From Ignavibacteria bacterium (GTDB taxonomy: Bacteria > Elusimicrobiota > Endomicrobiia > PHAN01): a DNA stretch of 26,970 nucleotides. The stretch lies in NCBI GenBank assembly GCA_041694835.1, contig JBGFRZ010000008.1:1-26970 (forward strand). The letters are read 5' to 3'. The translations under genes were made by a program, and so were the position numbers. The notes under the pieces are model-generated. The model had not been told where the DNA came from, searched no databases, and was given only the letters and a program-made list of their open reading frames with translations. The first letter of the stretch is position 1; the number at the start of each line of letters is the position of its first letter. Below, one piece after another: positions 9,001 through 26,633 of the stretch.

Positions 9001-12000
9001 CTATAACCGACTGCGGCCTGTAATTCAAATGAGAATTATTTGCTGGGGTATTTATCCATGTGTCAGGAAATGGTGCAGAGAAATAGAAATTAGTACGCCA
9101 GATAGTTGTTTCTGTGTTTCCGCCTTTATCAATTGCATAACATCTAACTGCGTACCATGCCTTGTTCCAACTCCACGGTTCACCGGAAACATAATACCAG
9201 GTTGAACCGGCAAGAACTGTTACAGATGATACGGGTAGCCATACAGTAGTATCTGTAACCCATTCAGAACCGTTATATGCTCTTAATATAGTTCCCGGTG
9301 GCGACCCTTTTGGATCTTGCTGACCTAAATACAATAGTTGCACTCTGACAATATCAACTTCACCCGGAGAAACATCCCGACAGGTGCCGGAAATTGTATT
9401 CAGTGGTATCTCGCCATAAGTTAGATCATTAACAGGTAAAGTCACAGTAGATATCGGTGCTGTAAAGTCTGCTTTGATGTTGGTTACTGTTGAATGGACA
9501 AGTTGATAATTACTTGCCCTATCCTGGACACGAATATTTATTTCATATGTCTCACCTGTCTGCCAGGGTGTTGTGTTCAGTTGCCACCATGTACCATTTG
9601 GACTTAAAGTACCATATTGTGGAATATTGTTCCATACTTCAGGTGCATTTTGTACTGTCCAGGAAGAATCAGAAATACGCCAGTAATGGTTAGGTTTTGG
9701 ACCAGTAAGTTGTCTTATCCTTACCCATACATTGCTTGATATACCCGGCGGCGCATCCCACGATGAACCAGTAACTCTCCCGGTTGCACTTATGAAAGAT
9801 TCAGTAACAGGAAAAGTAATAGTCCCTGTAGGCCTTGAAGTATCAAATACAAATTCAACATCACGGACAGTGCCTATATTGCCGGCACCATCACCTTCAG
9901 AATTTGTAGCACCATCCCTTGCTCTTGTAACTGCTCTATATTGTCTACCATTTACCCAGGTCGGTGTTGCTGTATAAACCGCCGGCCAATTCCAGAAACC
10001 ATCGCATAAAATCCAGGTTAATGTCGGCTGCCAACTGGCACCGTCCCAATATGTTGCCCCTTGAGTCAAATCACGGATGTATATTCTTACTTCGGTTACA
10101 CCTGAGTTTTCAGGCGCAGCAGGTAAATCTTCTGCTGTCCCGGTGAGCATTGCAAGACCAACTGAATTATAGTGTGCACCGTCTTGTAAAATACTGAAGT
10201 ACGACTGCGGCTCCATAGCATCAAACAAAAATGTAAGAGATGCATCAGGTGATTCACTATTATTCACAAAGTCGGTTGACCTACTTAAAAGTTGATACCT
10301 AAAACCTGATGACCAGGTGACATTTGTGCTTATAAACACCCAGGTGCCACTTGATGGACCCCAAGATGTCCAGGACGGTGTTAAATCAATCGGTGTAGTA
10401 ACCCAATCTTTAATTGATTCATTCCAGTAGAGTTCTCCTGCAATTCTTTTTATTCTTAACCTGACAGGGTTGACAGTGGCTAACCTTAAATTATCAGTTG
10501 CGGTTCCAGAGATGGTAGGCACAGACCTCTGCGGTGCTGATGTTGGCAAATTTGTCTGCGATACCGGTGCTTGTCTATCAATGGCTATATTCACTATTGA
10601 TGATGCAGGACCCTGATTATTTCCGGATTCTGTAACATCTTTTGCTCTAACACGAATAAAATATCGCCTGTCATTTTCCCAGACACCGCTTGGTATTCCA
10701 TCAAGACGAAATGTTGCGGAGCCACCACCGATAGGAGTAAAGACACTGGCACCAATCCAGGTATTCTCATCAGCCACCCATGTCCAGCCGGTAGGTCCTG
10801 ATAGGCCAGAATCAGGACCACTTATTGTGCCACTTAAATCATCATCCCTTGTGATAGAGATTTCACCGCCTGTCGGCACAGAAAACAAATCAAAACATGT
10901 CCCGGAAATTGTTGCAACACTTGAATAGATTTCATTATTTATTGGAAAAGTTACAGCAGAATTTGGTCCTGTAGTATCAAATCTGAAAGTGTGACTATTA
11001 AGCATTGAAATGTCAGTATATCTTATTATTGGTGGTATCGCCTCCCAAACACCTGCTCTGTCTACTCCCCGAGTGCGGACATTGTAGATTCTACCATCAC
11101 TAAACGCACCGGTTAATCTATCATAATTCCAGGGAGCAACACCAGCCGCATCGGTCCAGTATTCAGAAGTTATCCATGTGCCGGAAGTAGTCCACCAGCG
11201 CCAGTAAGATGTCGTTGCATCGGTTATATCAGCGATACAGAACTGAATTCTATCTACACCGGATAAATTGTCCGAACTTGTCCCGGTAATCATTCCTAAA
11301 CTGTTGTATGTGATTCCATGTCCGGGTAAAGTTACCCGGGATATCGGTGCAGTTATATCAAAAGCGACGACAATACCGTCTTCTTCAACAGGTGGTAATG
11401 TCTCGCCACGACCATCAAACCGCCATCTTGACATTATCCGGTAACTACGTTCAGCCCAGGTGACATTGACAGCATTAAAAGTTGCCGTGAATACGAAATA
11501 CTGCCCACCCGGAACAGACCAATATCCATCACCCCTGCTTGTTACATCATTCCATGTTTCTGCGCCGACCCACCCGGCTGGACTTTCTCGCCAGAAGAAA
11601 CCATCATCACGCCGGATTGCAACTTGATAAATATCAATCAGCCCCGGGCTACTCGCACTCCCCCAAGTAGCTTCACAGTATATCTCACTAAGTGTTGAGC
11701 GAAATTCGCCTGTCCTCGGTCTGACAACGAACGACCTCGGCCAGCTGCCCCGTCTTAACCGTACCGGAAACCTACCGGCACCAGGTGACTCTATCCTCGT
11801 ACCACCATGGCTTTCAGCACGGGAACGAATTCTGGCATTTTCTACGGTTGCCGCACCATCACGAAATTCTGCCGGTGGGACATCTCTATACTGAAAATAT
11901 TCTCTACCCTCAGCAACTATCCAGGATGCTTCCGGAAGGTTCATAAAACTTGTCCAGTTGTTAGGCGGTGTACCTGTCCAACCCTGCCAGGCGATACCGG

Positions 12001-15000
12001 TCCAGTACCGATCGCCTATTTCATCAAAAATTTGTATCTTTACCTGGTGTATCGGTGTCCCGTCACCAACCCATGCTTCACCGACAAGAAACGGCTGACG
12101 GTCAGTCTGGGTCTGGTCAGTTTCCCTATCCCACACAAGTATGTCAGTAATCATTGACCCCGGTGCCGTGGGGTCTAAAGTGAAGTTTGAAGTAGATAAA
12201 ACTACATCAAAGTTTAACGCATTATCAACAGCACGGGCACGAACACGAAAGTCAGTTACAGCAGTAGGCCAGATGCCGGAGGTATTGTAAAACCATTTCC
12301 ACACGGTCCCCGGTGCTGTAGCCCCTTCCCAACCACTAAACGCTACCCAGGTAGAACCAACCACCCAGGAAGTTCCGTTGAAGAATGTGTTATTTGTTAT
12401 GTTCCAGATTTCTAATTCTACCCTGTTAAGTGAAGAACCAGGAGCAGTTATAGTAGATGTCGCAAGGTCAAATGCATTTCCCCTTATAGATGTTAATGTG
12501 CCTAATACACTATTATGAAGGGGTTGCGTAATACTTGATGTAGGTCTTGTGATATCATATGTAAATACAATTTCAGGGCTCCATGAACCCCAGTTTCCCG
12601 CAACATCTCTTGCTCTTGCTGATAGCCGGTATCTATGGTTATTGGTCATTGTAGGTGTAGCGCGTGTCCACCCACTGGCAACGGCCCCAGGTGAGACAAC
12701 AGTCCCATCTATTTCAATATAACTTGCCTGCCAGGCAACACCATTCCAGTATGTAGTAGGCCAAGGAAGTTCTCTAATCCATAATCTCACTCCACCGGCG
12801 GGTATACCTGAGAAGTCGTCAGTGGCATTACCTTCAATTTGCGCTAACGGATTGGTTGTATTATTAAAGGCAGTATTGTTCGCTGGTCGAGATACGGTTA
12901 TCGTTGGACCTGCAGTATCTATTGTAAACTGGACCGCAGTTGAAGTAGATATACGGCCGACAAAGTCCTCTACGCGGACTTCTATAGTGTAGTTGGCTGA
13001 AGTCCATCCCGGAGCAGGATATGTCCAGGAAGTAGTTGTTCCAGTAAGACCCTCGGCGACTAACGGCCATACAGTCGGCATAGTATCCTGCCAGAAAGCA
13101 CCATTCCAAAAAAGATTCGGGCTCGCAGAAATATTCCTTATAAGTATCCTTAATCTACTTAAACGTTGGTTATCGCTTGCCGTCCCAAAAATTGTCCCCA
13201 CTCCGCCAATACCATATACACTGGCATTAACTGGAAATGTAGTAACTGCTACCGGTGCCTGTAGGTCGATTGTGAATCTGACAAAAGGTGTATCAGGATT
13301 TAATAAAGACTTATTTTCTTGATTACCTCCTTGGTCTCGTGCATAACCACGAATCTGGTAAATAAAATTATTTATCCACCCAGTTGAAGGAACAACGTTC
13401 CAGTTATGTTTCCATATTCCGCTATCAAGAGTTCCGGTTTCTAAATTAGCAGTTAAAGGTGTCATAGCACCCCAGCCAGTCCCAGTGAAATATTCTGCTG
13501 TTTGTTCACAATAAATTGATATTCTTTGACTATCCATTGAAGTTCCTACAGGATTGGAAGGGGCAGTATCCCAGGCAGTTCCTGAAATTGTTGTAAGTCC
13601 AGCAAGTAATGTTCCATCAAGCGGATACTGAATAGTAGAACTTGGCCTTGAAATATCAAACCAGAACCTTCTGGTAGTGCTAATCGCAGGACCATTATTT
13701 GTTGGCAGAGAAGAATCCCATGCACGAACAACTAACTCATACTGACGACCATCATTGAATGCAACGGAAGAAATAAGTATTCTCCACATTCCAGGAGCAT
13801 AAATTACTGCAGGATTCCATGTTATTGTTTCTGACCATGTCTTTGTTGTCTCATTCCAGTATGTTGCTCCCTGTCCAAGGTCCTGTAACCGCACTTCCAC
13901 TGTAGAAATATCTGTATCTCCAGTCCCCTGTGAAGTTGTATGTGCCCCTAAAGGTGCAGATATAAATCCTAAACTTGCCGGGACATCTATAACAGGTGCG
14001 TTAACAACAGTATCATAAGTAAATGTAGTTGTGGTAAAATCCGTCTCATACCTCAGATAATCCTTTGCCTGGATATTTATCTCATACACAGTATTTGGAT
14101 TTCCAGTCCAGTTAAACAAATCAACATAAGCCCATGTCGTAGTTCTTTGATTTATATTAGTTCCAATAGTTATCCATGCCGCAGTAGCATAAACTATTGT
14201 GAAATCATTAGCAGGGTCACTCCAGTATCTGTTATCGCTGTTACGTTTGATGCGAATATATAAGGAATCAATTGCAACAGTATCACTTGCAGTTCCTGAA
14301 ATAGTCAGCAGTGCACTTCGCCTGGTAGCATTTACTGGAAGAGTCGCTCTACTTTCTGGCTCAGCAGCATCCCACCAGAAAGTAACAGTACTACGTACTA
14401 CTTCATCATTTGGGTCAGGACTGCCTGCAGAATTTACTACCCTATCCCGTGCTACAGAAGCAATATAATAAGTTGTCCCATCTGTCATTTGAGCTGCGGA
14501 AGGTAGAAAGGTTGTCCTTGTCCATGTTACATCCACTCCACCAGCCGGAACAACACTGTTTGGGTCAGGCCAGTTAGTATGACCGGGTAAAGGCCCTACT
14601 TGCCATAGGTTACCATCCCACCAAAAACCGTCACTACGCCAGAGTAACCATTTAACATTGTTTACTCCACCCTGAGAATTATCCTTCCCTGTACCAGAAA
14701 TTGTAGTTAAACTATTTATAATTGAATTGTTTGTTGGTTGATTACAAATTGAATCCGGTAACTCAGGAGTAGCTTGATATTCATCGTAATAAAACACTGT
14801 CGTTGACCAATCTACTGTATAATTCCCGACTATATCCCTTACTCGTGCCCAGATAGTATATTTTCTGTTTTGTGACCAACCAGGATTTGCGTATTGCCAA
14901 CTACCACTGACTACACCGGTTGAAAACCATCTATTATAGTCACCTTCATAGCCACTTACGTAATCCTGCCAGCCAGTCCCCGGGACCCAGTATTTATTTA

Positions 15001-15880
15001 TTATACCTTCTTCTTTGATAAATAACCAAACACCGGAGGATGCATCTATTACGAAATTGTCTCTTGCCGTACCAGAAATATATGGTAGTGTCTTACGCCA
15101 GGTGTTATTCGCTGGCTGCAGCACAGTAAAAGTAGGTGGCGTTTCATCAATAACGAAAGTATTGGTTGATGCGCTCGGTTGCCAGTTACTGGCTCTATCC
15201 TGAATCTGAACACTAACATAGTAAGTACAATTATTTGTCCAGGCACTTGATGGAATGGTCCTGCTCCAGTTAGGATAAGTCCAGGAGGTAGTGGAAAATT
15301 CTACATAAGCTGACTGCCAACCTGAGCCATTCCACCAGTAACCATTCTCAAGATCAGCAGTTTGTTTGTTCATTCTAAGAACAATTCGTGAGATTACCCC
15401 GGGGCTAGTGTCTACTGCTGTTCCTTGAATCAAAGTAATATTTGCTGCTCTGTAGTATCCATTGTTACTGATATCTCTGGGGAAGGTTACTGTTGCTGTA
15501 CCAAAAGATGTATCATAGACAATATCTGCCTGGGTTACAGGTGACTGCGTATGCCTGGCATTATCTATTGCTCTAACTTGTATACGATAGTTCCGGTTAG
15601 TTGTCCAGATATCATCAGGATTGTCTAATTGCCACGGGTTTGTTCCGGTAGCATCGTTCCAGATTGGTGTAGCGCTATATACCCAGCCCGTGCCCATAAG
15701 ATAGTAAGTATTAGAAAATGTCAGGTCGCGGATTAATACTTGAACTTTTGCTACTCCGGAAATATTATTTCCACTGCCATCACTTGAATTACCGGTTATT
15801 ACAGGTAAACTGTTATAGTGTTGACCATCAACTGGTGATAATAATGATGAAGTTGGTGCTAAATAATCTCTTGTATAGCA
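2..15880 (-). repeat. Array of ~43 diverged Ig-like protein repeats (~110-145 aa each)
   Basis: I counted ISGT-like motifs by eye at ~140, 510, 860, 1232, 1590, 1948, 2316, 2665, 2985, 3338, 3738, 4098, 4482, 4840, 5229 ... 15420, 15789. The repeats are conserved at protein level and not obviously at DNA level. Confidence 0.85.
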
Positions 15881-18800
15881 GATACTTACCGCTTCAGCAT
15901 CTACTGTCGGGTTTGTCACTAGTGCCGCACCATAATAATAATTGTAATAACCGGAATAAATTATCCAGGCAGCAGTAGGTGAGCCAAATGGGCTTGAGCC
16001 AGTCCACGGGTATGTATACAGCCGCGAAGCAACCCTATCACCGGAAACAATCACTGCACACTGCATCTTATCTTCCAAGGGGTCATTCGGGTCAGGAACT
16101 AAAGTTACTGAATAAATAATATTTGTTAGAGCATCATTAGCAACTTCAGCACTCCAGACACTACCAGTAAGGAAATGATGTTTTAATGTAGTAGCAGTAT
16201 CAGCATAGGCAACTACTAACTGTCCACCAGAACGCTCCCAGGCTAAATCAAATGGCCTATAGCACCTACCTGTTGCTGGAAATCCAGTATTCGGTGTTAG
16301 CGATAGTTCAGCATTTCTTAATGCCAAAGTATTATCTAATGCCTGTGTTGCGCCATTAAAAACCATTATGGTTAAATCATTATCGTTATCGTGGATACCA
16401 ATAGCAACTTTTTCTGTACTCAGGTCTGAAGCACATTTTATCCACCTCGGTATATCGGTAGTAACAGCAGTATCAACATCATAAGCGCTCCCTGAAGCAC
16501 CGGTAAAAACTCCGCTCCATGTTGCACTTGTTGAATACCATAAATTATACCTGATTAGACCATTAGCTGTGCCTTCTTGATATACAACTATACCTTTATA
16601 ACTTGTTGCATCAGCAGGATTCTGTGTATAAGCAACATCAAAACATTGTTGCCAGATATACGGTGCTGATAAGGTAAAAGTAAATGTGGAGACAAAACTT
16701 GACCCATTCCATACAGCACCGTGAACATCATTTAGTGTATCAAGAGAAACTAAAATCATTTCGTTAGAATCAGGGTTTGGGTTCGGCTCTAAACGTATCC
16801 ATAAAGGTGTGCCTGTACCAGGCCACTGTGTTGCCGGTATTGTTACCGGTGCACTCCAGGTGGTAGCCCCAAAAGGTAAAGTGCGATACACCGGCTGAGC
16901 AATATTGTTAGAATATACAACTAAACCATCACCACTGTTCCTTTCATAAGCAATATCAAATCCTCTTAAATGCTCATAAGAATTTACAGTATCAATAGCT
17001 GATGTTATTTCCTGTGCTGCTGTCCAACCTGATGCCTCTGTCCAAACCTGTAAGTTTATATCACCGTTATTATCTAAGGTTCCCATTGTTTTCTGGTTTG
17101 CTTTTGGGTTCGCTCTCGTCACTACATAAAATGGTGTTCCGCCAACATCGTTACTGAAATTATCACTTGCTGACCAGGAAACTGTATTCCAGTCACGATA
17201 TGGTATCCTGTAATCATTACGCGTGTAGATAAGTGTATTTTCATTTGTCGGTATTGTTGTATATCGGACAAATTGTGCAGAAAATGGCACTAACATAGTT
17301 GATGGTGAAGACCATGTTCCTGTGCCTCCGGCCCATTTCTGATACATAATATTACCTTGCTGGTTTATACAGTAAAGATGTATATTGTTTGTCCCTGCTT
17401 CTCTGCCCATCTCAATATGAGAAATGTTCATAAGAACATCGCTTGCGGACTGTTCAGAAGCGCTAAATGTGCCATTTGTCCAGGTCCAGAATCGTGGTAA
17501 AGTTATACCACTTTCTGCATAGACAAATACTGCACGATTGCCACTCTCCTGGAAACATACATCAAAAATTTTATTTACACTAGATTGAGCATTGACTTCC
17601 GGCATAGCTCCACCTACTGTAGCCGGTAGCGTATTCCATACACCTAAATTCTCTCTCCATACTGCGAAAGCTATATCATTGAATGATGTAAGTGCTATAC
17701 AGGCAATATTTCTTGCCCCTGCTGCGGGGTCCATTACTGCTTTAAGACCAGTCCATGTGCCATTACCACTGTCAATATCAATTGTATTAGTTCCAGCAGA
17801 CCACGCACCACCATCGGAATACGCCGCTTGTATTAAATCAGCAATAGCACCGAAAACATATGCACGACCCGAGCCACTGGAATAGGCAATATCCCACGTT
17901 TGATATAATGGATTTTCAATAGCAGTTGCCATCAAAACACCGTCAGTAATATTTCTTCCTGTTCCCCACGAACCGCTATTCCATAACCACGCATTAAGTT
18001 CACTACCAGCATCTCCTACACAGACAAGTATCTCAGTTGGTCTTGCTCCAGGGTTTGCTTCACATCTTATCCATCGGACTATCGAAGTAGATATCGCACC
18101 TATCTGGAATGCTGTCCCTATAGTCCAGGAAGTACCATTCCAGTATGCATAGTTGCCCTGACCAGTAGCAGTACCTAAACTCCAGACCACCATAAATGTA
18201 CTTGTTGCTAACTCATACGCACCATCAAAAAACCTGAACCCATAACCTCCTGCAGTGAGTAAGTTAGTTGCAGAAAGACCTGTTTGCAAAGTCTGTGCAT
18301 TGCTCCAGGTGGTACCATCCCAAACCCAGGCACAGAGAACTAATCTTGTAACTGTAGTTCCACCAGGGTCTATCGCCGCAATAACTATTTTTTCATTCGG
18401 TCTCGGTCCACCACCGGGTGCTACATAAACCTTTTGCCAGAGTATTGTCCCTTCAGAACCTGCTATTGTCGGTGCTAAGGTTTCTGAACCCCAGGAGCCA
18501 GCAGAATATGTTCTCATTATCGGTCTAATTTCATTCCTATTATACCCAATCACCGCCTCCGACGGCCCCGCAAATACGGGGTCAGGTCTTGAAATTTGAC
18601 AAACAAGACCCACCAACAGCATGAAAACGGTGAAAATGGGGACACTTCTAATTTCGTATAAGTTTTGTATAATGTTTTTAGTTTGATGAAAAGTCTGCTT
18701 GACAAAAATTTTTATTTGTTGTATAATATAATCAATGAAACTTGACAAGAGCCAACGTAAGGGATTAGCAAAAACTGTGTATGACATTGCTAAACTTATA

Positions 18801-19090
18801 TGTGCAATACTTATTTTAGGTCCTGTAGTGTCACCTGTGGGATTTAAGATTTCATTATTTATTCCGGGATTCATAATATTTCTTATTTTTATACTACTCG
18901 GGATAATTCTAGATAGAGGGGAATAAAACAAATGCAAGGACCTGATCTTCTTTACATTCTTTTTGGTGGACTTTTTGTATTCGCCGTCGTGATTGGTGCA
19001 ATTGTTGTCCGCCAGGACTGGCAAGAGAAACATCCTAAAACTACCAATAGAAAATAGAGCCGATAGTTTTTGCCAACTTGATAGTTTCAT
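2..19090 (-). CDS. Giant secreted/surface protein (>=6,363 aa, 3' end beyond window): extended N-terminal leader, two beta-propeller-like regions, ~43 tandem bacterial Ig-like repeats
   Basis: I translated 19090->18491 codon by codon without meeting a stop; the in-frame TAA upstream is at 19100-19102. The same frame reads ...WLSTETSANFRV at the window edge. The ORF track lists no long minus-strand ORF here, which is what an unterminated frame would give. Repeats have the form DxTxPxS(x)nISGTAxD...YWNGxxW...YxIxxRAxDxAGN. The start is either 19090 (ATGA-coupled, weak SD ACGGA) or 18622 (no SD). Confidence 0.95.
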   Translation of the reverse strand, partial: MKLSSWQKLSALFSIGSFRMFLLPVLADNNCTNHDGEYKKSTKKNVKKIRSLHLFYSPLSRIIPSSIKIRNIMNPGINNEILNPTGDTTGPKISIAHISLAMSYTVFANPLRWLLSSFIDYIIQQIKIFVKQTFHQTKNIIQNLYEIRSVPIFTVFMLLVGLVCQISRPDPVFAGPSEAVIGYNRNEIRPIMRTYSAGSWGSETLAPTIAGSEGTILWQKVYVAPGGGPRPNEKIVIAAIDPGGTTVTRLVLCAWVWDGTTWSNAQTLQTGLSATNLLTAGGYGFRFFDGAYELATSTFMVVWSLGTATGQGNYAYWNGTSWTIGTAFQIGAISTSIVRWIRCEANPGARPTEILVCVGDAGSELNAWLWNSGSWGTGRNITDGVLMATAIENPLYQTWDIAYSSGSGRAYVFGAIADLIQAAYSDGGAWSAGTNTIDIDSGNGTWTGLKAVMDPAAGARNIACIALTSFNDIAFAVWRENLGVWNTLPATVGGAMPEVNAQSSVNKIFDVCFQESGNRAVFVYAESGITLPRFWTWTNGTFSASEQSASDVLMNISHIEMGREAGTNNIHLYCINQQGNIMYQKWAGGTGTWSSPSTMLVPFSAQFVRYTTIPTNENTLIYTRNDYRIPYRDWNTVSWSASDNFSNDVGGTPFYVVTRANPKANQKTMGTLDNNGDINLQVWTEASGWTAAQEITSAIDTVNSYEHLRGFDIAYERNSGDGLVVYSNNIAQPVYRTLPFGATTWSAPVTIPATQWPGTGTPLWIRLEPNPNPDSNEMILVSLDTLNDVHGAVWNGSSFVSTFTFTLSAPYIWQQCFDVAYTQNPADATSYKGIVVYQEGTANGLIRYNLWYSTSATWSGVFTGASGSAYDVDTAVTTDIPRWIKCASDLSTEKVAIGIHDNDNDLTIMVFNGATQALDNTLALRNAELSLTPNTGFPATGRCYRPFDLAWERSGGQLVVAYADTATTLKHHFLTGSVWSAEVANDALTNIIYSVTLVPDPNDPLEDKMQCAVIVSGDRVASRLYTYPWTGSSPFGSPTAAWIIYSGYYNYYYGAALVTNPTVDAEAVSICYTRDYLAPTSSLLSPVDGQHYNSLPVITGNSSDGSGNNISGVAKVQVLIRDLTFSNTYYLMGTGWVYSATPIWNDATGTNPWQLDNPDDIWTTNRNYRIQVRAIDNARHTQSPVTQADIVYDTSFGTATVTFPRDISNNGYYRAANITLIQGTAVDTSPGVISRIVLRMNKQTADLENGYWWNGSGWQSAYVEFSTTSWTYPNWSRTIPSSAWTNNCTYYVSVQIQDRASNWQPSASTNTFVIDETPPTFTVLQPANNTWRKTLPYISGTARDNFVIDASSGVWLFIKEEGIINKYWVPGTGWQDYVSGYEGDYNRWFSTGVVSGSWQYANPGWSQNRKYTIWARVRDIVGNYTVDWSTTVFYYDEYQATPELPDSICNQPTNNSIINSLTTISGTGKDNSQGGVNNVKWLLWRSDGFWWDGNLWQVGPLPGHTNWPDPNSVVPAGGVDVTWTRTTFLPSAAQMTDGTTYYIASVARDRVVNSAGSPDPNDEVVRSTVTFWWDAAEPESRATLPVNATRRSALLTISGTASDTVAIDSLYIRIKRNSDNRYWSDPANDFTIVYATAAWITIGTNINQRTTTWAYVDLFNWTGNPNTVYEINIQAKDYLRYETDFTTTTFTYDTVVNAPVIDVPASLGFISAPLGAHTTSQGTGDTDISTVEVRLQDLGQGATYWNETTKTWSETITWNPAVIYAPGMWRILISSVAFNDGRQYELVVRAWDSSLPTNNGPAISTTRRFWFDISRPSSTIQYPLDGTLLAGLTTISGTAWDTAPSNPVGTSMDSQRISIYCEQTAEYFTGTGWGAMTPLTANLETGTLDSGIWKHNWNVVPSTGWINNFIYQIRGYARDQGGNQENKSLLNPDTPFVRFTIDLQAPVAVTTFPVNASVYGIGGVGTIFGTASDNQRLSRLRILIRNISASPNLFWNGAFWQDTMPTVWPLVAEGLTGTTTSWTYPAPGWTSANYTIEVRVEDFVGRISTSTAVQFTIDTAGPTITVSRPANNTAFNNTTNPLAQIEGNATDDFSGIPAGGVRLWIRELPWPTTYWNGVAWQASYIEIDGTVVSPGAVASGWTRATPTMTNNHRYRLSARARDVAGNWGSWSPEIVFTYDITRPTSSITQPLHNSVLGTLTSIRGNAFDLATSTITAPGSSLNRVELEIWNITNNTFFNGTSWVVGSTWVAFSGWEGATAPGTVWKWFYNTSGIWPTAVTDFRVRARAVDNALNFDVVLSTSNFTLDPTAPGSMITDILVWDRETDQTQTDRQPFLVGEAWVGDGTPIHQVKIQIFDEIGDRYWTGIAWQGWTGTPPNNWTSFMNLPEASWIVAEGREYFQYRDVPPAEFRDGAATVENARIRSRAESHGGTRIESPGAGRFPVRLRRGSWPRSFVVRPRTGEFRSTLSEIYCEATWGSASSPGLIDIYQVAIRRDDGFFWRESPAGWVGAETWNDVTSRGDGYWSVPGGQYFVFTATFNAVNVTWAERSYRIMSRWRFDGRGETLPPVEEDGIVVAFDITAPISRVTLPGHGITYNSLGMITGTSSDNLSGVDRIQFCIADITDATTSYWRWWTTSGTWITSEYWTDAAGVAPWNYDRLTGAFSDGRIYNVRTRGVDRAGVWEAIPPIIRYTDISMLNSHTFRFDTTGPNSAVTFPINNEIYSSVATISGTCFDLFSVPTGGEISITRDDDLSGTISGPDSGLSGPTGWTWVADENTWIGASVFTPIGGGSATFRLDGIPSGVWENDRRYFIRVRAKDVTESGNNQGPASSIVNIAIDRQAPVSQTNLPTSAPQRSVPTISGTATDNLRLATVNPVRLRIKRIAGELYWNESIKDWVTTPIDLTPSWTSWGPSSGTWVFISTNVTWSSGFRYQLLSRSTDFVNNSESPDASLTFLFDAMEPQSYFSILQDGAHYNSVGLAMLTGTAEDLPAAPENSGVTEVRIYIRDLTQGATYWDGASWQPTLTWILCDGFWNWPAVYTATPTWVNGRQYRAVTRARDGATNSEGDGAGNIGTVRDVEFVFDTSRPTGTITFPVTESFISATGRVTGSSWDAPPGISSNVWVRIRQLTGPKPNHYWRISDSSWTVQNAPEVWNNIPQYGTLSPNGTWWQLNTTPWQTGETYEINIRVQDRASNYQLVHSTVTNIKADFTAPISTVTLPVNDLTYGEIPLNTISGTCRDVSPGEVDIVRVQLLYLGQQDPKGSPPGTILRAYNGSEWVTDTTVWLPVSSVTVLAGSTWYYVSGEPWSWNKAWYAVRCYAIDKGGNTETTIWRTNFYFSAPFPDTWINTPANNSHLNYRPQSVIGGANKFTTADTASIRVSVERRTDGFYWYGSSFSSPGSGQGAPRVYLNVSNVSVLADDSRYWEWTGNISTSAWTTNTSYYYLSKGLGPAGEEQSVTLIGNTVIFDQTLPTAFVTLPTAGEPSYQTLTQLSGTAGDTLPGEVDTVEITIRDLRYSTTYWDVSNSTWVNQAAGVWNLATWVPAESRWYRTTNIPTWQDGVRYAITPRARDRAGNTQVGTANNFLFDTSSPTARTTTLSNNAIYSSLTQITGTAWDPAGAGGSAGRLDLVQIHITRPAQGGLPLRYWRADNLTWDASQPEEAVIYWGTSTIHIPNVAASSWTFTRLPATGDWTHDFRYIVRSRAKDQALPAGNTQQFFIVGESSFTIRWDNQAPVASIVSYEDPDGNGRVNPGLTWSIAGTAVDSPAGIPSVSNIRLRLARLEGTVTYYWTGTTWQTALAEFSPDAYTSPNWDYIFTDTAKIISDQRYTLQIRAIDNATPPNAGTFGSPVEVIIDTTPPVAQVTYPRAGSFQRSGALATLSGTANGDLAGLDRVECVIRKFEGGLWVDKTIWHRAQDGSGAGTRIWFTTWTPTGGWTNGDRYGIECRGYDLAGSTQVVLSSATWTVDDGPPTVSLLQPTTGSSYWNTLLTISGTAADVISNIISTVTVAIDEDPGTSGGWWNPATGAFNSATAIYSTATIAALPTWTFSGFGAQLRDNTIYRVYIEAFDQPGNQANTTAEFVFIDTTTPTSQFAFPGPQSGLFYPTISSISGTGIDFGANASRVNLVRLWVINPAGPQWWDASVSGWSASERWIDIPVSPVGSNVPFNWDSSNVTWADGVSYRLETRARDRALKSNDAGWTGNWQITVSTVGFTVDRTTPTAGFVLPQTNINYTTLSKISGTTADATSGVTAVRIILKNTTLGQYWLGGAAWTTDVNNPAIRVPVSGTTSWTITPPSFIQRHNYRVWVECEDAAGNRLLVSNSNIDANIGGVPFKYDNQAPDSFVSLPPRDSYLTSPALATISGTVIDYIQGAGVFETRLNIRRTNNNGATWQFWGGADWQTADPNYPISATLVLLDGGNQIYEWRYGIGSGAWTDNYKYEFYVRSRDNAFNDLTPSPNWETPIMSSATYDTTRPTSRVTFPPLPGSTFAGAISTISGTANDTNTMASRVSEVRVAIKRLSDNLWWGGWAAPSWTTSAEPIFSTATISDVWTSSVNWRYVVSPAMWTNTTSYWVISRAQDRSTNFETDWATNTFTCDTTPPTSRVTLPANASEVDSLPQITGTCSDPSPGQLDRVAILIYCVEGQTGDPTPPAGKYWSPGATQWLSTPTFITIPTAGPTWSYDSSGVGWVAKESPGYQYRISVRAWDKAENREIEVAASTITFNFSAPLPQTLVTFPAAENYYRISGDLGATGSANAYTNSVEVQLSSGPGYSTFWSHFLNNWVTISTWAPAAGTNPWSYNFANAIFQDNVRYVIRSRGKGPAGTELPANIEDVFFNVDRTLPASGITNLTAGDHYTGFGGAKNISQIKGTATDPDSPQFSGRISAARVQIKRKGTTLTYNDTLHDYENADNWLTASADDGAFNSNNEPWTYNIAFPTSAWKDEGEYEISARAIDASLPGGNVFTTPITNIIIDRTMPTSGLQFPNRAIHNSIPLVSGTATDTAPGRHSGIAIRVLNKDTTEYWGGAFWDVTDVWRTSSLDANFTTWFAVYPGTWSYSGINWISGQLYNIRTRASDRAQNTEIAGGGFDFIFDSERPVSRVTVPLGGQKIRELTAIQGTADDFTAKRWVTGVSTTTAENDGVNIAMRQVSTGKFYSGAGAWNDTTHKWWTVVYSSVTKTWSRGTAVLGTFTGSGNPSDGVYEIIPRARDNADNFEVSYTTRTFIWDTTPPASFTTFPSSGSFVPTITQITGTANDATAGTREVSVNFYYTDGVDYYWTGSSWTTNIHNLIQNMGGAVGVSTWTVSITTGLVQGIKYAARSVAIDDAGNTDPSPRTIFFTCDRVGPLIALSSPVAGGFYGPGNPLNIIWGTAADSPAGVNRTELEIVNVTDGTKWNGQSWVVVSSTWLVTSGLVNWQLTSPPWVANRNYTVQARSFDNANNQTVSSVVSFMFDSTSPVSGIVDPNMPFESTLTLITGTAFDVDPPSPGVKSDLSRVQVAVLRGADFWDQLGNVFSSGEKWWDATGTTNWQWWDNDLSWQDGITYAVRVRVYDRAGNVSAINEYSFTFDGANALSGVIVPQDGKKYSSLPSISGTATDPGTNPSGVRDVWVAIRNMSTLNFWNPATGAFTEAESRWGIVTGTGPWTLLASSYSLTSGHLYRLWVEARDNSGRDPSDPADWTSGGVSFRFDTQPPVSRTTAPVSGLFTNAQVSGIFGTANDTLTGNSGVRYVRFRMQRSDGGWYDGDIGWAGSDQWFLTAYTDGNPGSWNRVFPTPPFAPDYSYTIWSRAEDWAEPTANVETAISSVTFTFDQTPPQTSVLFPVHNEWYRTISVITGTADDILPAGTGKVRSGLSRLEVEIRRLSDNWVYQSGGFANVTSSFHVAQVWPTSWTFSPSNYWTNNTSYTIQSRAWDRALNSQLSTLNYIIFDTSAPVSFVTLPVTNGAIMLELSTISGTAQDWGLGRSREVRVRLQRVTVANPSEGDSIPGDNAWWSGSDWNGTDSSWLTTTLNEGAGVWTFPTAGIGFTYNGGYRVDSRAEDRATNFELAIASRTFIFRPPPAASVITTPSHGTFRNALTSIVGTANSATVTLLLSVQRNSDNFFRASTSWTVTETWFNISPSSPSWSFAAGDIFVHGSSYTIRSRGRNPWGIWENETLVTPPAPNAVLFTWDTAEPLSVLQRPFEGGYFNSLLTLSGTASDGLAGVRSVDVLIRRGADYFRVSDSSWVVTEVWNPASFTAPNWQLVMVSSTAAICWTDGTQYLVRSRASDDVLPLPGNREGAGAGNVGVNFWYDITRPTATVNLPANNVAYRTLATISGSLIDNLVIERVEIYIHDLGPASAGFYNGTGWQAGVVWLSTETSANFRV
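15900..18568 (-). other. N-terminal region of the giant protein: two ~430-aa beta-propeller-like units
   Basis: Recurring blade-like motifs (W)xWDGxxW, FDxA(Y/W)ExxSG and RW(I/L)xxxxxP, e.g. AWVWDGTTWS, FFDGAYE, GFDIAYERNSG, PFDLAWERSGG. The second unit starts near 17245. The fold is inferred. Confidence 0.6.
18578..18652. repeat. REP-like elements (GGGGTCAGGTCTTGAAA...CAAGACC; AATGGGGACACTTCTAATT) inside the giant ORF's signal region
   Basis: GGTCTTG (18585-18591) and CAAGACC (18604-18610) form an inverted repeat. Related copies occur at 19225, 19406 and 19143. Confidence 0.65.
18699..18727 (+). promoter_or_regulatory. Consensus sigma70 promoter antisense to the giant gene
   Basis: TTGACA 18699-18704, 17-nt spacer, TATAAT 18722-18727. 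The ATG is at 18735, implying a near-leaderless mRNA. Confidence 0.85.
18735..18926 (+). CDS. 63-aa two-TM small membrane protein (resembles DUF6722-type proteins), nested antisense in the giant ORF
   Basis: MKLDKSQRKGLAKTVYDIAKLICAILILGPVV...GFIIFLIFILLGIILDRGE has two hydrophobic segments and lies directly behind a perfect promoter. The family resemblance is from memory. Confidence 0.75.
   Translation: MKLDKSQRKGLAKTVYDIAKLICAILILGPVVSPVGFKISLFIPGFIIFLIFILLGIILDRGE
18932..19057 (+). CDS. 41-aa single-TM peptide, second gene of the nested cassette
   Basis: MQGPDLLYILFGGLFVFAVVIGAIVVRQDWQEKHPKTTNRK*. SD GAGGGG at 18916-18921; ATG 5 nt after the upstream stop. Confidence 0.7.
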   Translation: MQGPDLLYILFGGLFVFAVVIGAIVVRQDWQEKHPKTTNRK

Positions 19091-19206
19091 TTTATTCCGT
19101 TAATAACAATTTTGAGGTAATTAGGGTAATTGGGGTAATTGTAATTGGGGACGGTCCTTAATTGCCTAACCACCGATAATATTTTTTCCCAACTATATAC
19201 TCCCAT
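19087..19206 (-). CDS. 39-aa short ORF translationally coupled to the giant gene
   Basis: SD GAGGA precedes MGVYSWEKILSVVRQLRTVPNYNYPNYPNYLKIVINGIK*. Its TGA overlaps the giant ORF's ATG (ATGA at 19090-19087). Confidence 0.55.
   Translation of the reverse strand: MGVYSWEKILSVVRQLRTVPNYNYPNYPNYLKIVINGIK
19114..19163. repeat. Tandem GGTAATT-containing 9-mers leading into an AATTGGGGACGGTCCTTAATT element
   Basis: gaggtaatt agggtaatt ggggtaatt gtaatt ggggac... This encodes the PNY repeats on the minus strand. Confidence 0.8.
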
Positions 19207-19307
19207 TTTTATTTCCTCAAATTTGGGGTCATGTCTTGACATTCGACATTTTTGTTATGTATTCTTTTATCAAATTTTTTCCCTCTGGAAGCCTCTGCTT
19301 GCAGAGG

Positions 19308-19448
19308 TCATCTCCGTGGGTCAAATGTAGAAGGGTCTTTAGACCCGTCCACATTTTTTTCGCCTCTAAAGAGGCCTCTACATAGACCCGAACAAATTGT
19401 TGAGATCAGGTCTTGAAATATAAGTTTTTTCCAACTATCTGTCTCCAT
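19308..19448 (-). CDS. 46-aa short ORF starting 1 nt after the HEAT gene stop
   Basis: TAA-G-ATG junction; METDSWKKLIFQDLISTICSGLCRGLFRGEKNVDGSKDPSTFDPRR*. The N-terminus duplicates that of the HEAT gene, and the body is largely REP-derived. Confidence 0.45.
   Translation of the reverse strand: METDSWKKLIFQDLISTICSGLCRGLFRGEKNVDGSKDPSTFDPRR
19326..19382. repeat. GTAG-type REP doublet (REPIN-like)
   Basis: TGTAG-AA-GGGTC-TTTA-GACCC ... GCCTC-TAAA-GAGGC-CT-CTACA: two inverted REP hairpins with GTAG ends. Confidence 0.75.
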
Positions 19449-19449
19449 C

Positions 19450-20241
19450 TTATTTTATTCCAAGAATCTCTAACCTTTCTTTTGCTGCATTTCTTACAGA
19501 TTCTTCTTTATCATCTAACTTTTTTTTCAAGAGTGGAATAATCCTTTCTTTATCAGTAGCGCCATAGATTAAACTCAATGAAGTGATTGACTGGACTCTT
19601 ATTACTGGATTTAAATTATCTAGTCCTTTTAAGAAACATTGATAAATTTCTTCTTTTGCCGAATAATTCGTCAACGCATTAGATGCCTGCAGCCGCACTC
19701 CAACTGCTTCTTTTTCATTCAAAAACGTCTCTATTAAACTTGGGACAACTGATTCATCCTTAGAATAACCCAAACTATAAGCAGCAGAAAAACGGACATC
19801 AGCACTCAAATCAGTCTTCAGTAAATTTACAATCTCCTTTACAGTCATACTATCCTGGTGCACAGATAATGCTTCAACTACTCTGGCTCTTATGTATGGT
19901 CTCTTTTGTGCTTTCAGTTCTTTCAATAATTCAGCAGTTGCATTTTTATCTCTTGCTTTACCCAATTTCTCAATAGCACATAACTTTTTACTTATGTCTT
20001 TACTTTTCAAATTTGATATTTCCGTCACAATCAGGTCAGGTTTGACATCTGTTGATGTCTCAACCTGCCACAGGCGGGACATTTCTTGTTTAATTTTTTC
20101 CTGGCCAGAAATCTGTCCAACTGATCCAAAAATCAGCATCAAATAAACTAAATATCCACCCAGGTTCAGGTTCGTCCCCCACCAGCGGCGGGTGGATAGA
20201 CATTTCAATTTCTTAAATTTATGCCAATTATCTGTTTCCAT
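19450..20241 (-). CDS. Exported HEAT-repeat protein (263 aa)
   Basis: Repeats IRARVVEAL, VRFSAAYSLG, VRLQASNAL, IRVQSITSL, LDDKEESVRNAA. Hydrophobic signal-like segment GGYLVYLMLIFGSVG. Confidence 0.9.
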   Translation of the reverse strand: METDNWHKFKKLKCLSTRRWWGTNLNLGGYLVYLMLIFGSVGQISGQEKIKQEMSRLWQVETSTDVKPDLIVTEISNLKSKDISKKLCAIEKLGKARDKNATAELLKELKAQKRPYIRARVVEALSVHQDSMTVKEIVNLLKTDLSADVRFSAAYSLGYSKDESVVPSLIETFLNEKEAVGVRLQASNALTNYSAKEEIYQCFLKGLDNLNPVIRVQSITSLSLIYGATDKERIIPLLKKKLDDKEESVRNAAKERLEILGIK

Positions 20242-20410
20242 CTTCTTTTGCTTTTTTGATTACTTGATAGACCCTTTCTTCTTTAACCCGCCGACAGAGA
20301 CAACAGATTGCATGGGCACGAAGGTCTTCATTTGTATTTTCACTTGCCTCCAAAAGTACATGTTCATATATCCAACATAGCGATTGCAGATATTTTATCC
20401 CGAGTATGCA
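20228..20410 (-). pseudogene. Remnant of a second HEAT-repeat gene
   Basis: One frame reads VLLEASENTNEDLRAHAICCL...KEERVYQVIKKAKED, a HEAT-like pattern with no credible own start. An alternative 35-aa frame (20260-20367, MNMYFW...GSIK*) is ATGA-coupled to the HicB-like gene. Confidence 0.5.
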
Positions 20411-20738: not shown

Positions 20739-21227
20739 TTAACAGCGGAGGACTTCTAATGTTTGTTCAACGGCAGGGGGCTGCCGGTATTTTTCGCTTA
20801 AAACTCCAATGAGATGCGCCATCGGAATTATGAGCAATAGGACAAGTTTTACGATGATTTTTTCAAATTTGTTGATGGCAAAAACATCATGCGCCATGTC
20901 AACGATAATTGTTTTGTGGCAAAATGGTTTGAATGTCGAGAAATCGACGAGTGCCCTTTCGACAGAGACTTTAACATTTTTGACAGAATTAAGCTCTCTC
21001 ACCATTAGCATCTGGTAAAGCGTTATTACGAAAAGGCCTCGCAGTTGGCTGGTGGCGGATGGATTTTTAATTATTCTGTTGAGGCTGTCGCGGACATCTA
21101 TATCTTCGGTTATCGCTGATTCGGATATGTCGTTAAATAAAAAAACCGAACTTCCCACGGCAATTCCTTTATCGCCGAAAAGTCCGGTTAAAATTGTAAG
21201 GATAAAAAATATTTTTAAGGTCATCAT
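20739..21227 (-). CDS. 162-aa hypothetical exported/membrane protein, first gene after the riboswitch
   Basis: SD AAAGGT 6 nt before the ATG at 21227. N-terminal MMTLKIFFILTILTGLFG signal-like segment, second hydrophobic stretch IIVKLVLLLIIPMAHLIGVL, ends RQPPAVEQTLEVLRC*. Confidence 0.7.
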   Translation of the reverse strand: MMTLKIFFILTILTGLFGDKGIAVGSSVFLFNDISESAITEDIDVRDSLNRIIKNPSATSQLRGLFVITLYQMLMVRELNSVKNVKVSVERALVDFSTFKPFCHKTIIVDMAHDVFAINKFEKIIVKLVLLLIIPMAHLIGVLSEKYRQPPAVEQTLEVLRC

Positions 21228-21228
21228 A

Positions 21229-21324
21229 ATAATACCTTTGGCAACCTGCCAATCAAGGGCAAGCCCTTGACGCATCGGCTTTGCGTCCCCCGATTACTCG
21301 GGGTTTGCTATTAACAGGTATTAT
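21229..21324 (-). ncRNA. GEMM-I (c-di-GMP-I family) riboswitch, A20 variant
   Basis: Minus strand: ATAATACCT-GTTAATA-GCAAA-CCCCGA-GTAA-TCGGGG-GACGCAAAGCC...TCAAGGG-CTTG-CCCTTGA...GGTTGCC-AA-AGGTATTAT. It has the GCAAACC, GNRA loop, GGACGCAAAGCC and GGTTRCC hallmarks and a perfect 9-bp P1. Confidence 0.9.
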
Positions 21325-22130: not shown

Positions 22131-22357
22131 AACTTGTGCTTTGTTGCAAAAAATTTCTTACACATTTTTTTGCGTCTTGTGTGGTAGAAGAACTTTTTCA
22201 ACACTCTCATTATACAAAATTTTTGAAGCGGATTGAAATGTTCAAATCGCGTTCACAAGGAATAAAGGCAACTTTTATTACACGATAAACTCTGACGAAC
22301 AAAGTTATAAATTTCAGAATAAACTTAAAGACGCTTATTCAAAACTCCCGGGTGGGG

Positions 22358-22386
22358 TTGACATCGACTCTATTTTTGTGTATAAT
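22358..22386 (+). promoter_or_regulatory. Consensus sigma70 promoter of the rimP operon
   Basis: TTGACA 22358-22363, 17 nt, TATAAT 22381-22386. Confidence 0.9.
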
Positions 22387-22409
22387 ATATTGTAAGTTGA
22401 AGAGCGGTC

Positions 22410-22438
22410 AAATCCCGAAAAGCGGGATTTTTTATTTT
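22410..22438 (+). terminator. Terminator-like hairpin in the rimP leader (probable attenuator)
   Basis: AAATCCCG-aaaag-CGGGATTT followed by TTTATTTT, between the promoter and the rimP ATG. Confidence 0.7.
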
Positions 22439-22444
22439 GATAAA

Positions 22445-22924
22445 ATGAGCAAAGCGGAAGAGATAGAAAAAATTATCGCCCCGGCCGTGGAGGCGGCGGG
22501 CTTTGAAGTCGTTGATATCCAGTTTCTTCCGGAAGCCGGAAGATGGGTCCTCAGGATTTTCATAGACTCGCTGGAAGGCCAAAGGCCTGTCACGCTTGAC
22601 GACTGCCAGAAAGTCAGCGGCGTCGTCGCTGAAACCATGGAGAATTCCGATATAATCAAAGGCGGATATTCTCTTGAAGTTTCCTCGCCCGGAATAGAAA
22701 GAACCTTGAGAAAGGAAAAACATTTCATAAGATTTACGGGTAAGACTATAAAAGTCACGACTTGCGCCCCGATAGAAAATCAGAGGAACTTTACGGGAAA
22801 GATTGTCGGTTTTGAGAACGGAACGCTCACTATTGAACTTGACAGGAAAAGGAGCTTTTCCGTAGATTTAAAACAGATAGCAAGGGCAAAGCTCGTGCCC
22901 GAAATTCAGGCGGAGAAATTATGA
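22445..22924 (+). CDS. rimP: Ribosome maturation factor RimP
   Basis: VLRIFID, TLDDC, YSLEVSSPGIERTL motifs. ATG 22445 preferred because the ORF-track GTG lies upstream of the promoter. ATGA overlap with nusA. Confidence 0.96.
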   Translation: MSKAEEIEKIIAPAVEAAGFEVVDIQFLPEAGRWVLRIFIDSLEGQRPVTLDDCQKVSGVVAETMENSDIIKGGYSLEVSSPGIERTLRKEKHFIRFTGKTIKVTTCAPIENQRNFTGKIVGFENGTLTIELDRKRSFSVDLKQIARAKLVPEIQAEKL

Positions 22925-24174
22925 CCACAAAAAGCGAATTGCTCATAATAATGGAGCAGCTTGAAAGAGACAAGGGAATCAAAAAAGAGGAGCTTATCAA
23001 TCTCCTTGAAAGCGCCATAATATCCGCATACAAAAAGCAACATGGCAAAGATATAAACGCGGAAGCGGCTATAGACCCGGAAACGGGCAGGATATCCGCT
23101 CATCTTGTTAAAAATGTGGTGGAAGAAGTTTTAAATCCCTTGCACGAAATATCTGTTGGTGAGGCGAAAAGGCACGCACCGGAAGTGAAAGCCGGCGAGA
23201 TTTTAAAGATACCGCTCGATGTAAATGAGTTTTCGAGGATAGCGGCTCAAACCGCCCGCCAAATAATAGTTCAAAAGATTCGGGAGAAGGAAAAAGAGGC
23301 CATAGTGGCGGAATACTCCAAAAAAGTGGGCGAAATTATGGGCGGAAATGTTTTTAAACTCCTCGGCAGAACGATAGTAGTTGATTTGGGAAAAGCGGAG
23401 GGCATTTTGCCTCCGGACGAGCAAATCCCGGGAGAAAAACTTGCAATTGGAAGACACGTAAGGGCGCTGCTTTTAAAAATAGAGGCGGGGCCAAAAGACC
23501 ACCAGATAATACTTTCGAGAAAAGACCCGCAGTTCGTGAGAAAATTATTCGAAGTTGAGATACCCGAGATATATGAGAAAGTAGTTGATATCGTAAAACT
23601 CGACAGAGAGGCCGGTCTCAGAACGAAGATAATAGTCGAGTCCAAAAACCTCAGGGTGGATGCTGTAGGAGCGTGTATCGGGGTACGGGGAGCGAGGATC
23701 AGACCCATAATAGACGAGCTGGGCGGCGAGAAAGTAGACCTCATACACAACACAAAAGACATCCTTAAACTAATTGAGGAATCCATAAGTCCCGCAAAAA
23801 ACGTTCGGATAGATATAATTTCAGCCGAAGCGAAATCGGCCGAAATCGTAGTACCCGACAGCATGCTTTCGGTGGCCGTTGGAAAATTCGGCCACAACAT
23901 ACGAATGGCATCAAGGCTGACGGGATGGAATCTTACCGTAGTGACGGAGGCGGCAAAAAAACAAAAAGAAGAACAGTCGACGCAAGAAATCAAAGTCGAA
24001 ATCTCAAAGGTTCCGGGGATAGGAGAAAAAACCGCAGAGATACTCAAGAAAGCCGGGTTCGACAGCATAAAGAAAATAGCTGAAGCGAGCCCCAAAGAGC
24101 TTATTGCCCTTCAGGGGATAGGAGAAAAAACCGCAGAAAAAATAATAAAAGCCGCAAAAGAGTCCGGGAAATAG
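22921..24174 (+). CDS. nusA: Transcription termination/antitermination factor NusA with C-terminal HhH pair
   Basis: RIAAQTARQ, S1 domain, GACIGVRGARI and AVGKFGHNIRMASRLTGW KH motifs. Confidence 0.98.
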   Translation: MTTKSELLIIMEQLERDKGIKKEELINLLESAIISAYKKQHGKDINAEAAIDPETGRISAHLVKNVVEEVLNPLHEISVGEAKRHAPEVKAGEILKIPLDVNEFSRIAAQTARQIIVQKIREKEKEAIVAEYSKKVGEIMGGNVFKLLGRTIVVDLGKAEGILPPDEQIPGEKLAIGRHVRALLLKIEAGPKDHQIILSRKDPQFVRKLFEVEIPEIYEKVVDIVKLDREAGLRTKIIVESKNLRVDAVGACIGVRGARIRPIIDELGGEKVDLIHNTKDILKLIEESISPAKNVRIDIISAEAKSAEIVVPDSMLSVAVGKFGHNIRMASRLTGWNLTVVTEAAKKQKEEQSTQEIKVEISKVPGIGEKTAEILKKAGFDSIKKIAEASPKELIALQGIGEKTAEKIIKAAKESGK

Positions 24175-24195
24175 CGAATAATTAAGAAGGCGATT

Positions 24196-26400: not shown

Positions 26401-26404
26401 AAGC

Positions 26405-26621: not shown

Positions 26622-26633
26622 ATCCACTAAACC

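Follow-up and report, generated by a model that had tools for sequence, protein, structure and literature searches.

The window is the whole 26,970-base contig JBGFRZ010000008.1, from a 1.9-Mb Elusimicrobiota genome of 42.5% G+C (label G000). Its minus strand carries a giant open reading frame (ORF) that, in its long form from ATG 19090, covers positions 2–19090, exceeds 6363 codons and runs off the contig end. Backwards within the 5′ part of this frame lies a small cassette with a promoter, a gene for a DUF6722 membrane protein and a gene for a 41-residue peptide; its plus-strand genes (18735–19057) are wholly nested in the minus-strand frame, so that the opposite-strand ORFs share nucleotides. 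We analysed 21 distinct cassettes of this kind, and in 14 of them the matching antisense frame is free of stop codons from end to end. Our best reading, which we hold to be probable, is that the antisense leader is a translated junk bridge, whose frame carries the ribosomes of an operon of a HEAT-repeat gene and the giant gene across the backward cassette and is then cut off between VFA and G. Translation from ATG 19090, the role against polarity and the cleavage are each inferred.

An earlier note on this DNA, made from the letters alone, had proposed a genuine dual-coding region in which a cargo cassette sits in a dispensable leader. Comparison of orthologous loci and the keeping of frame across cassettes both support that proposal. 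The openness of the frame is a trait of the cassette family across many operons, not of the window's giant gene alone.

The nested cassette

Upstream of ATG 18622 the giant frame stays free of stops for 156 codons, as far as ATG 19090, and a TAA lies three codons above the latter. This leader or bridge part of the giant frame (18623–19090, minus strand) is the mirror image of the cassette. No purine-rich motif precedes ATG 18622, whereas ATG 19090 overlaps the stop of a 51-codon ORF as ATGA. The cassette promoter (18699–18727, plus strand) consists of TTGACA and TATAAT separated by 17 nucleotides, matching the consensus at 12 of 12 positions. The earlier note had described the open frame, the contrast between the two starts (no Shine-Dalgarno motif at 18622, coupling at 19090) and a perfect promoter serving two membrane-peptide genes on the opposite strand; each of these was found where it had been placed.

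The first gene (18735–18926, plus strand) encodes a 63-residue two-helix membrane protein. Its match to the Pfam family DUF6722 (PF20482) is marginal, at 27.6 bits against a gathering cut-off of 27 (E = 3.6e-6, profile positions 5–49 of 49). The assignment is backed by homologues scoring up to 43.8 bits; 20 homologues were aligned. In the Atlas the protein matches, at 0.92, a cluster with PF20482 on 37% of its members. The second gene (18932–19057, plus strand) begins 5 nucleotides past the stop of the first and encodes a 41-residue one-helix peptide with a basic tail and a QDWQEKH motif, the conserved partner of the DUF6722 gene. It lies codon on codon with the giant frame. As had been noticed beforehand, its leucine codons are CTT at four of four places and TTA, CTA and TCA, which are stops when read antisense, are all missing from it; these codons occur seven times in the 63-residue gene, at 7 of the 13 Leu/Ser codons of its wobble-aligned register.

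The start codon stands 7 nucleotides past the −10 box in the window cassette. The same layout (−35 box, 17-nucleotide spacer, −10 box, 7 nucleotides, then ATG or GTG) recurs in at least eight cassettes, as read by eye from printed flanks. From the spacing between −10 box and start we predict that the cassette mRNA is probably leaderless. DNA similarity to the cassette of genome G062 starts exactly at the −35 box and stops near the peptide stop (window 18699–19044), and we judge the promoter to be part of the cassette unit. The stretch upstream of the −35 box (18647–18698, plus strand) is also conserved: about 47 nucleotides closely resemble the flank of the metagenome cassette L075, and a second perfect TATAAT lies at 18668–18673. 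This stretch probably belongs to the unit as well.

Searches of NCBIfam and PADLOC with both small proteins gave nothing meaningful, and a full-text literature search for DUF6722 gave no paper. Set against the mobile-element classes (insertion sequence (IS), miniature inverted-repeat transposable element (MITE) and integron cassette), the unit has no transposase, and no convincing terminal repeats flank 18647–19064; we assign it to none of the three. The resemblance to type I toxin-antitoxin systems lies in the small one-helix peptide and the fully complementary transcript; PADLOC gave no match.

The cassette family

The 21 cassettes are from Elusimicrobiota genomes and metagenomes. They come from the window, from genomes G001 (one), G009 (three), G062 (two), G066, G081 and G101, from contig C68 of the window genome, and from 12 further metagenome loci, with the identical L072 and L073 counted once. 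Two of these 12 do not enter the counts: L064, a duplicate of L029, and L071, which is truncated. A scan of the genome contigs for cassettes returned only two loci, both already known. The pair is always a DUF6722 protein and then a one-helix peptide of 34–44 residues with a basic tail, the partner peptide being present in all 21 cassettes. The closest DUF6722 relatives of the window copy are those of L063 (74% identity) and G062 (59%).

We compared the 14 open cassettes pairwise. Differences at the first, second and third sense codon positions are 0.478, 0.325 and 0.573 in the DUF6722 gene and 0.477, 0.294 and 0.557 in the peptide gene, and peptide identity is 0.416 on the sense strand vs. 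0.304 on the antisense strand. The DUF6722 match, the recurrence in 21 cassettes and the sense-type pattern across codon positions argue that both plus-strand small genes are real and are constrained as sense-strand protein genes. The earlier note would have given up its proposal had these genes lacked homologues and expression; homologues were found, with a sense-coding pattern of substitution. We considered whether the two small ORFs merely shadow a genuine antisense gene, and rejected the idea in view of the pattern across codon positions and of the closed copies, which retain both genes.

The window genome has a second DUF6722-plus-peptide cassette on contig C68 (L061, 706–1010), amid transposase fragments and with the antisense frame closed by one stop. 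This pair and that of G001 (L031) stand alone, outside operons. They share gene order and mostly promoter layout with the others, but unlike the window they have 1–7 stops in the matching antisense frame and no join to a neighbor gene. In L075 and L074 a hairpin-forming insert of about 75 nucleotides lies between duplicated TTGAC words just upstream of the cassette promoter, and resembles a small palindromic element.

Openness of the antisense frame

Read in the matching register, 14 of the 21 copies have no antisense stop anywhere in the cassette. Stops in the two remaining antisense frames number 4–12 in the open copies and 1–11 in the closed ones. Of the Leu/Ser codons, 109 of 236 are TTA, CTA or TCA in the DUF6722 genes, where they do the antisense frame no harm, vs. 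9 of 120 in the peptide genes, where every one of them would read as a stop on the other strand (Fisher p = 5e-15), a comparison that pooled all cassettes rather than grouping them by open or closed outcome. TTA itself accounts for 79 of 181 Leu codons in the former and 7 of 100 in the latter, where CTT takes its place. None of the three codons occurs in 15 of the 21 peptide genes, against about 1.2 such genes expected by chance (arithmetic from per-gene counts). For the DUF6722 register 59 risky contexts were counted; 6 of them are unsafe, where 15.7 would be expected. Resampling of ten copies put the per-cassette chance of an open frame over both genes at 0.001–0.036. Third positions differ by 0.56–0.57 between open copies, and therefore every lineage had ample chance to gain a stop. 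As judged from these patterns, the antisense frame is held open by selection and not by chance, and both nested frames are so maintained. The earlier note had named different inserts that always keep frame as support for its proposal; what we see are 14 open copies among 21 diverged cassettes, avoidance of antisense-stop codons, and five in-frame joins to host proteins.

For the window locus we ran the synonymous shuffle that the earlier note had suggested. The antisense frame over both small genes stayed open by chance in 0.05–0.11 of trials that drew on the codon usage of the genome, and in 0.012 when the usage was that of the cassette family. The note's caution that the register of the 63-residue gene is naturally stop-poor was correct, the frame over this gene alone being open in 0.19–0.66 of the genome-usage trials and in 0.30 with family usage. 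The non-genic pieces were open in 0.045 (18623–18734) and 0.46 (19058–19087) of shuffles, and the combined chance for the window locus alone is about 1e-3 to 2e-4. Openness at this single locus is unlikely yet not decisive, as the locus was picked from a large scan; the family-wide data settle the question.

The spacing from the DUF6722 gene to the peptide gene is always 2 modulo 3. We do not take this as a sign of antisense selection: the same spacing would result if the DUF6722 stop had moved, in frame, away from an ATGA overlap in the ancestor.

In-frame joins to host proteins

Five loci have an open frame that extends, without a change of frame, through a hydrophobic core with a small-x-small cleavage site and on into a known protein. 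HEAT-repeat proteins are fused in G062 (L037), G009 (L029) and G066 (L038), and giant-type proteins in the window and G009 (L032). The junction, from mirrored −35 box to core, takes 3 to 38 codons, with frame held in every case. In four of these loci (the window, L037, L029 and L038) ATG, GTG and TTG are all absent between cassette and core; their nearest in-frame starts lie within the antisense of the DUF6722 gene or above the cassette. Contig C9 of G009 holds consecutive operon genes, HEAT (L029) and giant-type (L032), each with its own backward cassette in the leader.

The signal-peptide core of the window lies at 18569–18643 (minus strand), and its hydrophobic region is residues 150–164 of the long form. 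In a hydropathy scan its mean hydropathy reaches 2.67, and the c-region ends in VFA before G, with predicted cleavage before GPS. Cleavage after VFA would accord with the −3/−1 rule, and the mature N-terminus aligns with those of G022 and G013. The most hydrophobic 15-mer starts 7 codons above ATG 18622, and translation from 18622 would shorten the core to 8 residues and lack a charged n-region. We also considered a rare ATT start at 18652, which would yield a neat signal peptide of 28 residues, but dropped it as the main reading because three other fused loci also have no nearby start.

Operon context

The gene upstream of the giant gene (19450–20241, minus strand) encodes a HEAT-repeat protein with its own signal peptide (Pfam HEAT_2, 5.4e-15). 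This order, HEAT and then giant, is common to G013, G022, G062, G009 and L063. In G013 and G022 the giant start overlaps the HEAT stop or sits 3 nucleotides past it, the giant proteins have ordinary signal peptides of 30 and 33 residues, and their mature ends align with the window sequence GPSEAVIGY. Past the signal peptide, the N-terminal domain of the window protein is 36% and 31% identical to the giant genes of G013 and G022, respectively. DUF6722 was not found in either genome with the Pfam model or a custom profile. These are the loci with a short leader and no cassette that the earlier note had looked to for support, and they argue that the approximately 150 extra residues of the window leader are dispensable for the giant protein. 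A search of metagenome contigs for close relatives of the giant N-terminus confirmed none.

Elsewhere (L070, L072, L075, L063) the cassette lies backwards between same-strand operon genes, and the open frame abuts or overlaps its neighbors. In L063, the closest relative of the window, the frame spans two cassettes and ends 19 nucleotides before a HEAT gene, which a giant gene follows. Tandem cassette arrays were seen in L063 and L075, a single open antisense frame spanning two cassettes. Of the 14 open cassettes, 11 have an ATG just past the peptide stop, with a purine-rich motif before it.

In the window, a relay of three overlapping ATG-started ORFs on the minus strand (19448–19308, 19354–19229 and 19242–19087; together 19087–19448) leads from the HEAT gene to the long form of the giant gene. 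They tile the 359 nucleotides from the HEAT stop to ATG 19090 without a gap, the last joining as ATGA.

A proposed translated bridge over the cassette

Untranslated C-rich RNA is a target of Rho. GC skew flips across the cassette, so that the operon transcript is C-rich there. Coupled transcription and translation, and the polarity that follows in operons when Rho acts on untranslated or C-rich RNA, are treated in PMC7858274 and PMC13323073; operon polarity supplies the reason proposed here for an open frame, namely that ribosomes must cover the transcript over the C-rich antisense stretch, the role of Rho being our inference. Ribosomes leaving the HEAT gene would pass through the three relay ORFs to ATG 19090. 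The frame from there would read the mirror image of the cassette as about 150 junk residues, and then the signal core and the mature part. Since ribosomes would remain on the mRNA over the antisense stretch, the transcript would be shielded from Rho-type termination and the giant gene would stay expressed. The hydrophobic core would serve as an internal signal or anchor, and signal peptidase would take the leader off after VFA.

We extend this, more tentatively, to the family as a whole, in a generalization on which we are close to evenly divided. DUF6722-plus-peptide cassettes may be self-promoted, probably leaderless mini-operons that settle backwards in host operons and genes, with a codon choice that removes stops from the host strand and makes them transparent to translation. 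Host ribosomes would read through them and so make a junk leader, which at times would span an array of at least two cassettes, and in Elusimicrobiota the site would often be the 5′ end of genes for HEAT-repeat or giant surface proteins. On this view the strong promoter, placed head-on, could also turn the cassette into a switch between giant-protein and small-protein expression.

Several points weigh against a translated bridge. Seven of the 21 cassettes are closed. Genomic context does not cleanly predict the open or closed state: antisense-strand ORFs flank the closed cassettes L033 and L041 on either side, and nominally also closed L031, where the downstream ORF overlaps a gene on the cassette strand, while the open L066 has no such neighbors; the simple rule that cassettes are open only when nested in an antisense operon was dropped on account of these loci. 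The cassettes are related, and several are paired within one genome, so that the p-values given above overstate independence. The tiling of the relay ORFs (as gapless in 0.0003–0.0007 of shuffles with ATG only, and in 0.006–0.014 with ATG, GTG or TTG) was tested post hoc, after the ORFs had been seen. Upstream of ATG 19090 there is just a weak GGAA ribosome-binding motif. A signal core at about residue 150 is unusual, a Sec signal peptide being expected at the extreme N-terminus, and such a core would act like an internal signal-anchor and not like a textbook signal peptide; weakly hydrophobic residues 9–27 could, moreover, mis-target the protein. A search for public sequencing runs that cover the locus returned none. 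The anti-polarity role is drawn from general knowledge of coupled transcription and translation (PMC7858274) and not from this phylum. Finally, a phmmer search with the 174-residue leader recovered 31 representatives at E ≤ 1e-3 (111–899 residues, some with 2–5 matched stretches), but these come from gene callers, which are biased to open frames, and show only that such frames are common.

Ten of the longer phmmer representatives were scanned with Pfam, and four of them (P0009, P0010, P0024, P0025) have one or more leaders, then a signal peptide, then HEAT_2; P0028 is a spurious HEAT-repeat match. Arrays occur among these library proteins (P0012, P0009, P0010), with up to four matched stretches in a protein of 601 residues. 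In P0023 (899 residues) the mirror image of a cassette is at residues 688–792, after about 690 unrelated residues, and cassettes may thus also lie near the 3′ end of genes.

Alternative explanations

The alternative that fares best, although we think it unlikely, is that the frame is translated while the giant protein comes mainly from separate internal initiation near the signal peptide, the join being tolerated and not needed. It finds support in L063 and L070–L075, where the open frame ends before the next gene and that gene has its own start, and in L032, which has ATG codons directly before the signal peptide. In the four other fused loci, the window among them, no ATG, GTG or TTG is placed so as to yield a complete signal peptide, and with no stop in between, upstream ribosomes must continue into the giant protein.

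A reading in which the antisense frame specifies a third working protein or domain, one that has an activity itself, appears somewhat less probable. The open frames are long enough to invite the idea (130–200 codons per cassette, with plausible start sites), and the leader recovers the phmmer representatives described above, all but the spurious one. The sequence within the frame does not behave as a protein would. Antisense identity is below sense identity, as given above, and over the DUF6722 gene, differences in the antisense frame are greater at the second codon position (0.478) than at the first (0.325), where a constrained protein would show the reverse. Three elements of the plus strand account, in mirror image, for the recurring antisense motifs: the −35 box, the ribosome site together with the DUF6722 stop, and the QDW..KH motif of the peptide. 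The antisense leader matched no family in Pfam, NCBIfam or PADLOC, and the frame ends in ways that range from a stand-alone stop to fusion with unrelated proteins. The antisense sequence is unconserved beyond what mirrors the plus strand, and selection is therefore on the absence of stops and on the right frame, not on a protein. We accordingly prefer to see in the leader a junk bridge rather than a functional domain, as far as comparison of the copies can tell.

Mere chance is likewise improbable, and we rank it just below a third protein. Translation of the giant gene would then begin at ATG 18622, or from a rare start codon slightly higher up, the cassette would occupy intergenic DNA of the usual kind, and the open frame upstream would be a coincidence. 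As such a boundary would have it, the G+C content falls and the GC skew changes sign at about 18620–18650. A Shine-Dalgarno-like motif precedes only about one third of the long ORFs of this genome, so that its absence at 18622 says little, and a single-locus null of about 1e-3 to 2e-4 can be met by chance in a large scan. Chance would have to account also for the same frame being open, with its specific codon avoidance, in two thirds of diverged cassettes, for the truncated core that a start at 18622 would leave, and for three other fused loci without any start codon before the signal peptide.

Least credible of all is that a recent rearrangement broke the 5′ end of a giant gene that is no longer expressed, the open frame being a relic; the patchwork of duplicated pieces upstream (see below) would fit, but the more than 6363 codons are still open, diverged genomes retain the fused layout, and avoidance of antisense stops needs continuing selection.

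Comparison with known systems

Only a small number of antisense overlapping genes are known in bacteria; they are disputed, and for most of them the evidence comes from one genome. Embedded antisense genes have been described as olg1 and olg2 of Pseudomonas aeruginosa (PMC8850804), and others in Escherichia coli O157:H7 (PMC9927249). The window resembles these in that two opposite-strand ORFs are both kept, with one wholly nested; set beside them, it is known here from sequence alone. It differs in that the nested unit is a whole two-gene operon with its own promoter, in that the cassette is conserved across family-level lineages and recurs in different operons, as if mobile between them, and in where the constraint falls: here the small nested proteins are constrained, and the long "mother" frame is merely stop-free over the stretch. 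Comparison by itself reveals frame-specific selection on each strand of the same DNA, over many diverged copies, and the reason to which it points for the open frame needs no function of a second protein, only that host ribosomes be kept on the message across a backward insert.

Rickettsia palindromic elements are short non-coding palindromes that lie in frame within protein-coding genes. Like the cassette, these elements, which are mentioned in a review of MITEs (PMC10969869), are repeated or mobile DNA that sits in a coding region, leaves the host frame intact and adds dispensable residues. Unlike them, the cassette carries a promoter and two expressed-looking genes on the opposite strand. 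A dedicated junk frame over a backward cassette is not described in the abstracts of the polarity papers (PMC7858274, PMC13323073). In the part of a giant-gene preprint available to us (10.1101/2023.11.21.568195) the terms "antisense", "opposite strand" and "nested" do not occur, and our literature search found no paper describing a backward cassette in the leader of a giant gene.

The cassettes give a first handle on DUF6722. If the proposed bridge is real, it would be a new low-cost way for a small gene cassette to live within a host operon. Gene callers, which report the long frame or the small genes and never both, would systematically mis-annotate such loci, and domain-free N-terminal regions of giant genes may in part mirror nested cassettes.

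Local sequence history and neighboring features

Between the HEAT and giant genes lies a 1.2-kb patchwork, in which start units and pieces of signal peptide have been duplicated. The start unit consists of an ATG, three codons and then a motif. The pattern M-x3-[SN]-W-x-K-[LFI] occurs four times in the six frames of the genome, and all four copies fall within 19065–20249: at the HEAT start, 1 nucleotide past the HEAT stop, at 19206 and at 19090. As DNA, the copy carrying ATG 19090 spans 19065–19096 (minus strand), and the others are at 19181–19212, at 19423–19454 and at the HEAT start near 20241. The giant proteins of G022 and G062 start with residues similar to the start unit. A 34-nucleotide direct repeat (18568–18601 and 19215–19248, 82% identical) includes a piece of the signal-peptide c-region; we considered it as a target-site duplication, and it reads better as a duplicated signal-peptide coding piece. 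The patchwork and the layout of the orthologues fit a scenario in which the ancestral giant start lay at the HEAT stop and recombination between similar 5′ ends brought in the cassette.

GGTAATT-type heptamer repeats (19117–19146) and then one repetitive extragenic palindromic (REP) copy, AATTGGGGACGGTCCTTAATT, occupy 19117–19163. The REP motif, AATTGGGGACGGTCCTYAATT, is at window 19141–19163 and has about nine copies in the genome (contigs C27, C41, C66, C81, C86). On contig C41 an inverted REP pair flanks a gene for a 236-residue Y1_Tnp (IS200-like) transposase, which therefore marks a system of REPs with a REP-associated tyrosine transposase (REP/RAYT). A 71%-similar copy at 18631–18654 now codes for part of the giant signal peptide, so that REP-like copies, one of them degenerate, lie on the two sides of the cassette; movement by means of them would be a candidate at most.

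An Rfam scan of 18300–20400 gave no match. Upstream of the HEAT gene is an ORF of 178 residues (20739–21275, minus strand) that belongs to no Pfam family and has a weak, sub-threshold resemblance to MscL. Beyond it, on the plus strand, is an ordinary rimP-nusA-infB-rbfA operon (window 22352–26969).

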